Source: a virus
DNA length: 39,123 bases
Direction: 5' to 3' (one strand)
IMG/VR virus record: IMGVR_UViG_3300027667_000001
Coordinates: 1-39,123 of that record
Under the pieces are notes generated by a model, which saw only the letters and a program-made list of their open reading frames with translations, was not told where the DNA came from and ran no database searches. The translations under genes and the position numbers were made by a program. Shown in pieces: positions 33,116 through 34,601 of the stretch. How positions within the stretch are numbered: position 1 is the first letter of the stretch; the number at the start of each line of letters is the position of its first letter.

Positions 33116-33904
33116 TTAACTTAATTTAAACCTATTTGTCATTTCTTCTTTTAATTCTGGTACGTTAATAGCATTAAGTGCCTTATTAGCGCGCAAATAA
33201 CTGGAAACTTCTACATGGCCATTTCTTTCTGAATAATCCAAAGCTGTAAGTTTATCTCTATCCCAAAGGTTAGGGTCAGCATCATGCTTTATTAATTCTT
33301 TAACACACGATAACTTACCTTGTTTTGCGGCTAACATTAAAGCGGTTTTATCGTAAAATGAACTAAATCGAGAGCAAATAGAATCTGGCATGCCACGACC
33401 ATTAACAATACTTTGGTCTTTAGTTAGTATTTCACTAAGTTTTTCAGCATTTCCCTCAAAAGCTAATTTTCTCAACTGATTTTCTTTTTTTTCTTTGGTT
33501 AAAACACTGCTGAAAGTAAATATAGAAAATGTATCTCGCATACCAATTAAAGGGCTAAAAGGAATACTATTAGATGATCTGATAGATAATGATAACCTTC
33601 TTTCATCATTCCTTGATTCTCTATCGTTAGAGATTAATCCTTTTATTTCCTCATCACTTTCTGATACATCAGAATAACTAGAGGTTTTTGTTGGAATATT
33701 GAAATTTCTGATTTCAGGCATTTCATCATTTATTAAATTATTATTTTCAGATAATAATCTTTTATTTTCCTTTAATAACTGTTCATTTCTTCCTTCCAAT
33801 ACTTTTACTTTAGCATTAAGACTTTGTATTTCCTTTGTTTGTTCAGAAACAACCCTATTTAATCGCGCTATTTCTGTAATAATTGAATCAACTTTACTTT
33901 CCAT
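33116..33904 (-). CDS. Coiled-coil + ankyrin-repeat protein (eukaryotic-like, effector-like)
   Basis: N-terminal heptad coiled coil. C-terminal ANK repeats (KTALMLAAKQGKLSCVKELIKHDADPNLWD, KLTALDYSERNGHVEVSSYLRAN). Acidic patch ELKEEM near the C-terminus. Confidence 0.8.
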   Translation of the reverse strand: MESKVDSIITEIARLNRVVSEQTKEIQSLNAKVKVLEGRNEQLLKENKRLLSENNNLINDEMPEIRNFNIPTKTSSYSDVSESDEEIKGLISNDRESRNDERRLSLSIRSSNSIPFSPLIGMRDTFSIFTFSSVLTKEKKENQLRKLAFEGNAEKLSEILTKDQSIVNGRGMPDSICSRFSSFYDKTALMLAAKQGKLSCVKELIKHDADPNLWDRDKLTALDYSERNGHVEVSSYLRANKALNAINVPELKEEMTNRFKLS

Positions 33905-33911
33905 ATTTATA

Positions 33912-34601
33912 TTACCTCATTTTATTTTCTGTTAAGATCGGATTTGATGCTTCATCTTCTTCAGGTTCATTTGATGGACTAAAAAAACATAAAGTATTTG
34001 TAATTGAATTTTTTATATCATTAATAACTAAAGAAATATTGACCTCTAATTTTTCACCATGATTTTTACCGATGTCCTCGATATCATTTACAGATAATTC
34101 ATTTTTATTCCAGTATCCTTCATAACGTCCATAACTTTCACCGGTTATTAAAAAGCAGAGAAATTGTACAATATAGCCTTGTAAAACTTTATCGACAGCA
34201 CGATCAAAAAATAACAAAAATTTATGATTTTCATCATATTCATGCTGAGAATCATTGAGCTTTTTTAGTCTTTTTCGATTTTCATTTATCTCGACTATAT
34301 CCGTAAAGGCGTTCTCTTTTCTGAAATCACTATCTAGTTTTTTCATAAATGCTTCGTGTTTTTCCAAATATGTATGATGTTTGCTTTTTTTATAAAATAT
34401 TCTTCTCTCTTTATCCATCAACCCGAACATAATTTCCCGCATTTCTCTATTTATTGCTTGTAATGATTCCTCTGTTTCATCTGATAAACGTCTACTAAGT
34501 TCTTGAGAATTCCTAACTAATGCCTGTACTTCGGTACGCAATTCTTGGGTTTGTCTAAATAATTCATCTATAATTTTTATTTTTTCATCCAAATTTCCCA
34601 T
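33912..34601 (-). CDS. Coiled-coil hypothetical protein (229 aa) with an acidic C-terminal tail; first gene of the late-strand operon
   Basis: ORF track. The N-terminus is a coiled coil and the C-terminus has NEPEEDEAS. There is no terminase-small-subunit-like HTH. Confidence 0.55.
   Translation of the reverse strand: MGNLDEKIKIIDELFRQTQELRTEVQALVRNSQELSRRLSDETEESLQAINREMREIMFGLMDKERRIFYKKSKHHTYLEKHEAFMKKLDSDFRKENAFTDIVEINENRKRLKKLNDSQHEYDENHKFLLFFDRAVDKVLQGYIVQFLCFLITGESYGRYEGYWNKNELSVNDIEDIGKNHGEKLEVNISLVINDIKNSITNTLCFFSPSNEPEEDEASNPILTENKMR

Follow-up and report, generated by a model that had tools for sequence, protein, structure and literature searches.

The window, the whole stretch of viral DNA that we analysed (39,123 nucleotides), carries a 99-nt terminal repeat, which makes the contig circular with a true length of 39,024 bp; it is the complete circular genome of an uncultured P22-like podophage, and its portal gene matches Pfam P22_portal at 1e-87. 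Three genes lie head to tail on the minus strand: an orphan gene encoding a 229-aa protein (33912-34601), a gene encoding a 262-aa coiled-coil and ankyrin protein, here called Ank (33116-33904), and the large terminase gene terL (31544-33094; phrog_38, 1e-76). The ORF coordinates place 7 bp between the 229-aa gene and Ank and 21 bp between Ank and terL, as the initial annotation had it. Because related contigs keep both upstream ORFs with dN/dS below 1, we take the pair to be real genes. Beyond them, a divergent intergenic region (34602-34787), partly conserved in sequence among relatives, separates the leftward 229-aa gene from a rightward gene pair and is presumed to be a promoter region for both units. 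A simple scan of its minus strand found no consensus sigma-70 site, other promoter types being possible, and no terminator-like site was seen from this region through to terL. Given the gaps of 7 and 21 bp and no terminator-like site between, terL appears to be co-transcribed downstream of the 229-aa gene and Ank.

The phage belongs to a family that we recovered on no fewer than 30 separate contigs from metagenomes; many of these, at 35-41 kb, are near full genome length. A megablast of INPHARED with positions 26000-39123 gave zero matches, and tblastn with TerL found relatives there at 32-35% identity at best. The literature that we searched contains no description of this phage group.

Ank begins with a coiled coil (residues 2-61), continues through a Ser/Asp/Glu-rich disordered linker (62-117) into about three ankyrin repeats (118-240), and closes with a disordered, acidic tail (249-262) that ends ..PELKEEMTNRFKLS. 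The coiled coil and about three C-terminal repeats had been proposed from the sequence, and Pfam, AF2 and Foldseek confirm them. Residues 184-240 match Pfam Ank_2 (42.5 bits, cutoff 27.3, 1e-10), and Pfam Ank is matched as well (38.5 bits, cutoff 21.1). In the AF2 model a long helix spans 2-61 (pLDDT about 87-91) and about three ANK-like helix pairs span 118-240, with 62-117 and 249-262 disordered. Foldseek searches with this model returned generic ANK proteins and DARPins (~100-125 columns aligned, probability 1.00), as did a profile search of the PDB, which found ankyrins and DARPins. Since its profile scores exceed the curated cutoffs and its modelled fold is an ANK solenoid, Ank is an ankyrin-repeat protein. 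Its N-terminus is an amphipathic coiled coil; we looked for a signal peptide or transmembrane segment in Ank and found none, the maximum 19-residue Kyte-Doolittle hydropathy being 0.87. Homologues (n=15) include long forms, and on every Ank-bearing contig that reaches terL the homologue sits directly upstream of it.

The 229-aa protein is harder to place. The initial annotation called it a coiled-coil protein, and a helix or coiled coil is indeed predicted at residues 2-73; this part is variable, however, and what the family conserves is a non-coiled C-terminal region at about 125-210, followed by an acidic tail ending ..NEPEEDEASNPILTENKMR. Just 7 homologues were found among 5.8e9 proteins and 3 representatives in a library of 1.84e9, and the gene is missing from four related contigs (L004, L008, L009 and L010). 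This distribution points to an orphan restricted to a narrow sub-lineage. A Pfam scan of all family members gave no consistent domain, a PDB profile search with the 229-aa protein gave no match, and no eukaryotic-like domain was found in it. The AF2 model is poor (pLDDT 56), too weak for a fold search. An exhaustive profile search recovered the family itself and one weak repeat match, in which the repeated unit of a YadA-type trimeric autotransporter adhesin (P0144) resembles the C-terminal region in 8 stretches (E 8.6e-7); we treat this as a lead only.

Two ideas about the origin and control of the 229-aa gene were set aside. That it split off a longer Ank gene was rejected, as tblastn found no similarity to long-Ank loci. 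A CsrA-regulated leader was suggested by an upstream hairpin in which ACAAGG(G)A overlies the Shine-Dalgarno sequence, and this hairpin looked conserved; the idea was dropped, as the folding energy is ordinary (z = -1.1; 30 of 200 shuffles fold as well) and the core motif ACARGGA is not enriched genome-wide (8 found against 7.2 expected), the leader copy in the window being inexact. As a side observation, the first few residues alone look alike between the 229-aa protein and long Ank (MG[ST]PL..), and an N-terminal 'MG', seen in the 229-aa family and in long Ank forms, agrees with the PROSITE N-myristoylation pattern in some members only.

The layout of both proteins, a coiled-coil stalk with a C-terminal head, raises the question of whether they are part of the virion, as a fibre, decoration or ejected protein built on a trimeric stalk with a binding head. 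Ank homologues differ in stalk length by the number of repeats, the adhesin-like repeat lies in the 229-aa C-terminal region, and both genes fall within the structural-gene transcription unit. Yet they stand upstream of terL, outside the conserved structural block, and close relatives with the same virion genes have neither; moreover, the adhesin match is weak, the 229-aa model is unreliable, and no PHROG structural family is matched. We regard a virion-associated role as quite improbable.

Genes for the small and large terminase subunits, terS and terL, are normally adjacent or overlapping, and the initial annotation described the 229-aa gene and Ank as occupying the slot where the small terminase should be. 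This description is misleading. An intact Sf6-type terS lies on the plus strand at 6311-6778 (Pfam PF20901 Sf6_terminase, 5e-29; phrog_1482, 4e-33), and it has been separated from terL by a cargo insertion and an inversion of ~27 kb. It is the same small-terminase-like gene that had been noted 12 kb away on the other strand, but that distance holds only through circularity, being counted across the circular junction (39024-33094+6311 = 12,241 bp). The phage otherwise resembles the P22/Sf6 terS-terL-portal module, with an Sf6-type TerS, with a portal and a gp10-like head-completion protein that are both P22-type, and with an ancestral layout in which terS precedes terL; it differs from P22 and Sf6 in the cargo between the two terminase genes and in the inversion that puts them on opposite strands.

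Relatives show the junction in several states. The two genes directly adjoin in L021, L048, L049 and L054. In L016, L019, L020 and L022 they are parted by 1.8-5.6 kb of unrelated small ORFs, which in L016 include a Phd/Doc toxin-antitoxin pair. L018, L044, L077 and L078 have the order terS>, <HK, <p307, Ank>, terL>, in which HK and p307 denote genes for a hybrid histidine kinase and a 307-aa protein, and L017 has the same order up to Ank, where the contig is cut before terL. In these related phages with the island, terS stands upstream of the cargo on the same strand as terL. We read the terS-terL junction, from these gene orders, as a hotspot for foreign genes in this P22-like podophage clade.

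With this comparison in hand, the proposal that Ank or the 229-aa protein is a small terminase in disguise, or an essential packaging cofactor replacing the canonical subunit, was rejected. A position directly upstream of terL and an oligomerising coiled coil speak for it, and nothing else does. The clade conserves an intact Sf6-type TerS together with terL, and neither protein matches a terminase family in Pfam, PHROGs or NCBIfam. TerS proteins combine an N-terminal HTH with a ring-forming oligomerisation core, whereas the Ank model consists of coiled coil, linker and ANK repeats; the 229-aa model is too poor for this comparison. Nor are the two genes conserved with terL in all relatives, since L015, L016 and L019-L022, whose TerL is 72-80% identical, have neither of them, and both change at non-synonymous sites 10-30 times faster than TerL. 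This reading is effectively refuted.

The position of the inversion comes from synteny comparison with relatives. Non-inverted relatives, among them IMGVR_UViG_3300043812_000055 and 3300003350_000001, have the order SSB> <HJR-like endonuclease <tail, whereas genomes of the window type have SSB> <HK <p307 Ank> terL>. A 12-nt exact inverted repeat, CATACTCTTACT, sits in exactly both junction spacers: one copy, at 10326-10337, is intergenic at one end of the block, and its partner, at 37438-37449, falls at the opposite end, where the 3' ends of HK and SSB face each other; ~0.06 chance matches would be expected for the regions compared, and the similarity around the copies extends beyond the 12 nt. 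By this comparison, a ~27-kb inversion in the window lineage moved the block from cargo to tail away from terS. The phage also has an invertase gene, at 8641-9246.

The two genes also evolve unlike the packaging genes. Between the window and L005, its counterpart with a TerL 99% identical, Ank is 66% identical, and against more distant relatives the values are 32-58% for Ank and 85-96% for TerL, the range for TerL across relatives being 72-99%. Whereas TerL, the major capsid protein and the portal have dN/dS ratios of 0.013-0.058, lowest in TerL at 0.013, Ank reaches 0.36 and the 229-aa protein 0.43. GC content is 0.30-0.32 in the island and 0.35-0.45 (mostly 0.40-0.44) in structural genes. 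Variable presence at a fixed position among syntenic relatives and deviant base composition are the marks of moron-type genes, and lambdoid morons likewise are cargo of lower GC and variable content. Ank and the 229-aa gene are very probably accessory cargo genes and not packaging genes.

The remainder of the island points to the host. The plus-strand pair beyond the divergent region comprises p307 (34788-35711), which is distantly cyclodipeptide-synthase-like (NCBIfam TIGR04539, 1.2e-6, below cutoff), and the hybrid kinase HK (35724-37340), which has the Pfam domain order PAS-HisKA-HATPase-REC without an Hpt domain. The pair is linked to Ank in those relatives whose flank is visible. The nearest named cellular relatives of HK, at 37-40% identity, are proteins of ~800 aa with Hpt from Legionella and Rickettsiella. 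The phage also encodes a porin of the Legionella_OMP family (2.4e-42) and a CsrA (3.7e-22), and the isolate L. maceachernii ATCC 35300 contains a related prophage whose TerL is 58% identical. On the grounds of the kinase relatives, the porin, CsrA and this prophage, the host is probably a Legionellales or Legionella-like bacterium, a circumstantial assignment. One related contig lies inside a Legionella MAG; near-identical contigs are binned into unrelated MAGs. An integrase was looked for in the phage and none was found, and a lysogenic-conversion scenario is therefore not supported.

[quoted passage not shown] The acidic blocks are present at both C-termini as described. The published E Block consists of 3-6 acidic residues within 6-10 residues, the first lying 11-18 residues from the C-terminus; it is present in only about half of known Dot/Icm substrates, and 38 of 56 candidates picked by it carried a translocation signal (PMC3096851). 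Both tails fit this definition, Ank with E-13, E-10 and E-9 and the 229-aa protein with E-18, E-16, E-15, D-14 and E-13, so the likeness to the Glu-rich block stands, by a criterion that is weak and loose. At least three Glu at -18 to -9 occur in 1 of 39 other phage ORFs, in a control set of just 41 ORFs. The block is kept in most homologues of Ank and of the 229-aa protein; in 10 of 14 Ank homologues it is followed by K/R-x-K-L-x, while the other four have different C-terminal tails. A KxKxx/KKxx-like dilysine motif, which resembles eukaryotic COPI-binding ER-retrieval signals, ends the Ank tail in 8 of 14.

Searches with effector models, as the initial annotation had advised, assigned neither protein to a named family. 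Matches to the NCBIfam models for AnkY, AnkX and LegC3 reach 14-22 bits where the cutoffs are 600-1400, and no equivalog cutoff is reached for AnkY/LegA9, AnkX/LegA8, AnkG, AnkH or LegC3; such matches are confined to the ANK or coiled-coil part and reflect generic similarity only. A Dot/Icm-effector reading is nevertheless plausible because of the E-Block tails, an Ank protein without a Sec signal, its disordered tail and the circumstantial link to Legionellales. Taking these features together, we consider it possible, at somewhat less than even odds, that Ank would be exported by the secretion system of its host as a candidate Dot/Icm effector. The timing is awkward for an effector, as the genes head an apparent late operon and late lytic expression would leave little time.

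The same timing suits a rival in which Ank and the 229-aa protein work inside the infected bacterium and are never exported, serving in anti-defence, host takeover or superinfection exclusion, or as adaptors of HK or CsrA. Co-transcription with terL implies late lytic expression; variable hotspots beside terminase genes commonly hold phage accessory genes of this sort, and in relatives this one carries the Phd/Doc pair and many small ORFans. Adjoining HK and CsrA cargo targets bacterial regulation, and fast evolution suits conflict with bacterial defences no less than conflict with a eukaryote. Against this, PADLOC gave no specific match, only generic ANK and REC matches, and the conserved disordered acidic tail of Ank has no obvious intrabacterial function. 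ANK domains in Legionellales, furthermore, occur mostly in translocated effectors. We give an intrabacterial role a real but distinctly minority chance.

Our preferred account, accessory cargo that includes an Ank exported by the host, has as a whole a probability of roughly 0.45. Its cargo part is very probable: one sub-clade gained the island at the terS-terL junction, with HK and p307 on the opposite strand and then Ank, which came to head the transcription unit of terL. The window lineage underwent the ~27-kb inversion, which flipped the block of cargo, terL and tail genes and left terS 12 kb away on the other strand, and another gene, the 229-aa orphan, was inserted in front of a shortened Ank. 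Ank itself would be a dimeric or oligomeric coiled-coil stalk bearing a three-repeat ankyrin head for protein binding. Made in an infected bacterium, probably of the Legionellales, it would be exported by the host's Dot/Icm system into the protist around that bacterium, and its ANK head would there bind a eukaryotic target; the 229-aa protein may likewise be a substrate, or may act as Ank's partner. A bolder version, which we think rather unlikely, is that a phage of a Dot/Icm-bearing intracellular bacterium encodes its own type IVB substrate, injected into an amoeba during phage growth, and that Ank, the p307/kinase pair, CsrA and the porin resembling the major outer-membrane protein (MOMP) would together reprogram both the bacterial virulence state and the eukaryotic host.

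Phage-borne ankyrin cargo is already known from other systems. Phage WO of Wolbachia is a large temperate phage of an alphaproteobacterium with a eukaryotic association module of many kb and many genes. Both WO and the phage described here place ANK-repeat and other eukaryote-like cargo in a variable module beside packaging and head genes, and each infects, in the present case presumably, a bacterium resident within a eukaryote; unlike WO, this is a 39-kb podophage with one small ANK gene, probably hosted by a gammaproteobacterium that has a type IVB system. The closest parallel among effectors is with the Dot/Icm Ank proteins of Legionella and Coxiella (AnkB, AnkX/LegA8, AnkY/LegA9, AnkH) and the coiled-coil LegC family, which share with Ank an ANK domain or coiled coil, the absence of a Sec signal and a disordered E-Block tail. 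Ank differs from them in being phage-encoded instead of chromosomal and in lying outside the named families, and as a translocated substrate it is a candidate.

Ankyphages of sponge symbionts encode ankyrin proteins, ANKp, with N-terminal signal peptides, which are thought to exit the cell by general secretion, and ANK genes have been reported in 418 IMG/VR phage contigs (Jahn et al., bioRxiv 10.1101/608950). ANKp and Ank are alike as auxiliary ankyrin-repeat genes on tailed-phage genomes with P22-type head genes and in their proposed action on the eukaryote that hosts the bacterium. Ank departs from ANKp in having no signal peptide, in its N-terminal coiled coil and type IVB-like acidic C-terminal tail, and in its fixed place as the first gene of the terL unit; in sequence the two are related through generic ANK repeats only.

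To our knowledge, hardly any tailed phage of Legionella or its relatives has been sequenced, and the cargo found here, with its ankyrin protein, hybrid sensor kinase, CsrA and homologue of the major outer-membrane protein, echoes themes of Legionella virulence and regulation. Even without export, the locus shows an unusual hotspot for cargo lying between the two terminase genes, and a large inversion that parts them. If Ank is exported, it would be the first type IVB effector known to be encoded by a phage, and phage, bacterium and protist would form a three-level interaction. Phages would then both give rise to new effectors in Legionellales and transmit them, and phage infection could change the outcome of encounters between bacteria and amoebae.

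The first 99 nt of the window are identical to its last 99 nt, which makes the contig a circle of 39,024 bp. Its late block, read on the minus strand between 33094 and ~12800, encodes a P22-type portal (Pfam, 1e-87), the large terminase TerL (31544-33094; phrog_38, 1e-76), the major head protein and a head-completion protein resembling gp10. A leftward early operon (1962 to 233, continuing 39020 to 37498) carries a YqaJ/RecE-like exonuclease, RecT and SSB; the genes for a Cro-like regulator, a replication initiator (3687-4658, +) and an Sf6-type small terminase, terS (6311-6778, +), belong to a rightward operon. 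Three tandem 23-bp repeats (TACCCCCCCGACAAAAATGTCGG) within the initiator gene, at 4068-4135, are probably iterons of the origin, like those of lambda O. We found no close relative of the window phage among deposited phage genomes (INPHARED) and no integrase in it, so it may not lysogenise.

A 41-nt inverted repeat (95% complementary, 7534-8197) bounds a 582-bp segment with a 120-aa ORF (7581-7943), adjacent to a Hin/Gin-type invertase gene (8641-9246, -; phrog_125, 1e-66). Because the strand of this ORF relative to terS is opposite to that in three relatives (L011, L013, L014), the segment fits an invertible switch driven by the invertase. A 90-aa protein (6076-6348, +), which in relatives is always encoded just before terS and overlapping it, may be a packaging cofactor; the relatives' versions bear CxxC...CPxC zinc-ribbon motifs.

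Upstream of terL, as the initial annotation described, are ORFs of 262 aa (Ank, 33116-33904, -) and 229 aa (33912-34601, -), with gaps of 21 and 7 bp. Both ORFs are genuine genes: each has counterparts in related contigs, and dN/dS is 0.36 for Ank and 0.43 for the 229-aa ORF. The ankyrin assignment of Ank holds: residues 184-240 pass Pfam ankyrin thresholds, and an AlphaFold model built from 14 homologues has a long, confidently modelled helix (2-61), a disordered linker rich in Ser/Asp/Glu (62-117), about three ANK-like helix pairs (118-240) and a disordered C-terminal tail (249-262). Foldseek searches with this model returned only ankyrins and DARPins. The coiled-coil description of the 229-aa protein stands only in part: an N-terminal helix is predicted at 2-73, but conservation is concentrated in the C-terminal region at ~125-210, which matches no recognisable family. 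A search of 5.8 billion proteins recovered seven homologues, and one of a 1.84-billion-protein library recovered three family representatives; the gene is confined to the window's immediate sub-lineage, and outside the family the protein resembles only a YadA-type adhesin, weakly and in repeated stretches. The 229-aa protein is thus an orphan, a second cargo gene and possibly a partner of Ank.

The idea that these two genes stand in for the small terminase fails. The terS gene does lie some 12 kb off on the other strand (12,241 bp to the terL start, measured around the circle), and it encodes a canonical TerS conserved across the clade. Neither Ank nor the 229-aa protein matches terminase families in Pfam, PHROGs or NCBIfam, and the modelled Ank fold is unrelated to TerS by Foldseek. 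A packaging need is likewise rejected, as both genes are absent from phages with TerL 72-80% identical, and the 229-aa gene even from phages with TerL 90-96% identical.

Relatives were gathered via TerS, SSB, TerL and Ank, and the window's proteins were then mapped onto them. Three terS-terL layouts were found: direct abutment of the co-oriented genes (L021, L048, L049, L054); the same orientation with the two genes held apart by unrelated cargo, small ORFs spanning 1.8-5.6 kb (L016, L019, L020, L022); and the window's island, in which terS is followed by a hybrid histidine kinase gene and a p307-like gene, both oppositely oriented, and then by Ank and terL in the orientation of terS (L017, cut before terL; L018/L080, L044, L077, L078). 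Given these layouts, the terS-terL junction is a cargo hotspot, with the island inserted between the two terminase genes. The L016 cargo includes a Phd/Doc (Fic-fold) toxin-antitoxin pair (13239-13882; Pfam 7e-9 and 1e-11), which illustrates the variety of cargo at this position, and L015 has the kinase and p307-like gene with an 88-aa ORF where Ank would be. In non-inverted relatives the SSB 3' end faces the late-operon end (a Holliday-junction-resolvase-type endonuclease, then tail genes), whereas the kinase takes that place opposite SSB in the window and in its closest relatives (L004-L010, L065, L066). This change of neighbour is the mark of a ~27-kb inversion, from the endonuclease through tail, head, terL, Ank and p307 to the kinase, which sets the lineage apart from its sister phages; breakpoints were placed at intergenic-spacer resolution. 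The copies of an exact 12-nt inverted repeat fall precisely in the two junction spacers (10326-10337 and 37438-37449; ~0.06 matches expected by chance), a suggestive tie to the inversion only.

A 278-aa porin-like cargo protein with a signal peptide, encoded near the late-operon end (10857-11693, -), matches Pfam Legionella_OMP (2.4e-42), the family of the major outer membrane protein of L. pneumophila, and is a strong link to a Legionellales host. For the phage kinase (35724-37340, +; PAS-HisKA-HATPase-REC, lacking Hpt), the nearest named cellular relatives are hybrid kinases of ~800 aa that do have Hpt; they come from Legionella sainthelensi, L. longbeachae, L. pneumophila and Rickettsiella and share 37-40% identity with it. 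CsrA (4936-5136, -; Pfam 3.7e-22) is encoded opposite to the surrounding rightward operon and is also found in relatives; it governs the replicative/transmissive state switch, and integrative elements of Legionella typically carry CsrA paralogues. The isolate L. maceachernii ATCC 35300 carries, on a 98-kb contig, a prophage with TerL 58% identical and matching head genes, and another relative lies within an uncultured Legionella MAG. Many near-full-length relatives were binned into unrelated MAGs, which we read as mis-binned free phage contigs. Legionellales is the best inference for the host from these comparisons, and to our knowledge all Legionellales have a Dot/Icm system.

Beside Ank, p307 (34788-35711, +) has a distant resemblance to tRNA-dependent cyclodipeptide synthases: NCBIfam TIGR04539 matches it at E 1.2e-6 with 28 bits, short of the model's cutoff of 45. 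In the examined phage relatives it is partnered with an Hpt-less hybrid histidine kinase, and the window's pair (34788-37340, +) could be a signal synthase with a sensor, carried by the phage. Directly upstream of terL, the prophage locus of L. maceachernii (L052, 5041-9321) also has a hybrid kinase gene, there full-length (919 aa), along with genes for an XRE regulator and a CDPS-like protein of 249 aa (E 9e-6).

We put the probability that Ank is an exported, Dot/Icm-type effector at about 0.4. This reading is favoured by the ANK domain, the lack of a Sec signal or transmembrane segment, the disordered tail, the E Blocks and a conserved tail pattern. Both the Ank and 229-aa tails fit the published E-Block definition, Glu-richness at -18 to -9 is comparable in only 1 of 39 other phage ORFs, and the Ank pattern, an acidic block then K/R-x-K-L-x, is retained in 10 of 14 homologues. 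The effector reading is limited because both genes are apparently co-transcribed with terL (7-bp and 21-bp gaps, no terminator-like site), an integrase is lacking, the named Dot/Icm families of Ank and LegC proteins are matched only far below their cutoffs, and the E Block predicts export weakly, being present in only about half of known substrates; 38 of 56 candidates picked by it carried a signal (PMC3096851). In 34602-34787 a simple scan for promoters gave no sigma-70 consensus reading leftward. Alongside stands an accessory role within the infected bacterium, which we hold to be only slightly less probable than the effector reading. We infer host, expression timing, export and target alike.

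Ank lies directly upstream of terL in all ~15 distinct contigs covering both and is the most divergent gene of the neighbourhood, with 66% identity between the window and L005 against 99% for TerL, and 32-58% against 85-96% for more distant relatives. Invariant residues are concentrated in the ANK region (e.g. GMRDTFSIFT, NGRGMPDSxCS), dN/dS is lower in the ANK part (0.24) than in the coiled coil (0.41), and coiled-coil length differs among homologues via repeat gain and loss; the window Ank is without the N-terminal domain of longer homologues. Such a pattern is what one expects of a functional interaction protein exposed to changing selection. Longer homologues (among P0004-P0014 of the Ank alignment) have a basic cluster in the linker (KRRKxEE, NKRVRRDE) and then S-D-x-E acidic-serine sites, resembling eukaryotic NLS and CK2 phosphorylation sites, and a C-terminal KxKxx or KKxx in 8 of 14 homologues resembles COPI-binding dilysine signals. 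The window Ank ends in RFKLS and has no basic cluster.

Phage-borne ankyrins are already known. Wolbachia phage WO carries ANK genes within its eukaryotic association module. The ANK proteins of sponge Ankyphages have signal peptides and dampen phagocytosis (bioRxiv 10.1101/608950). Unlike both, the window phage has a different probable host order and an Ank that is without a signal peptide, bears a type-IVB-like tail and is always the first gene of the terL unit, within the terS-terL hotspot.
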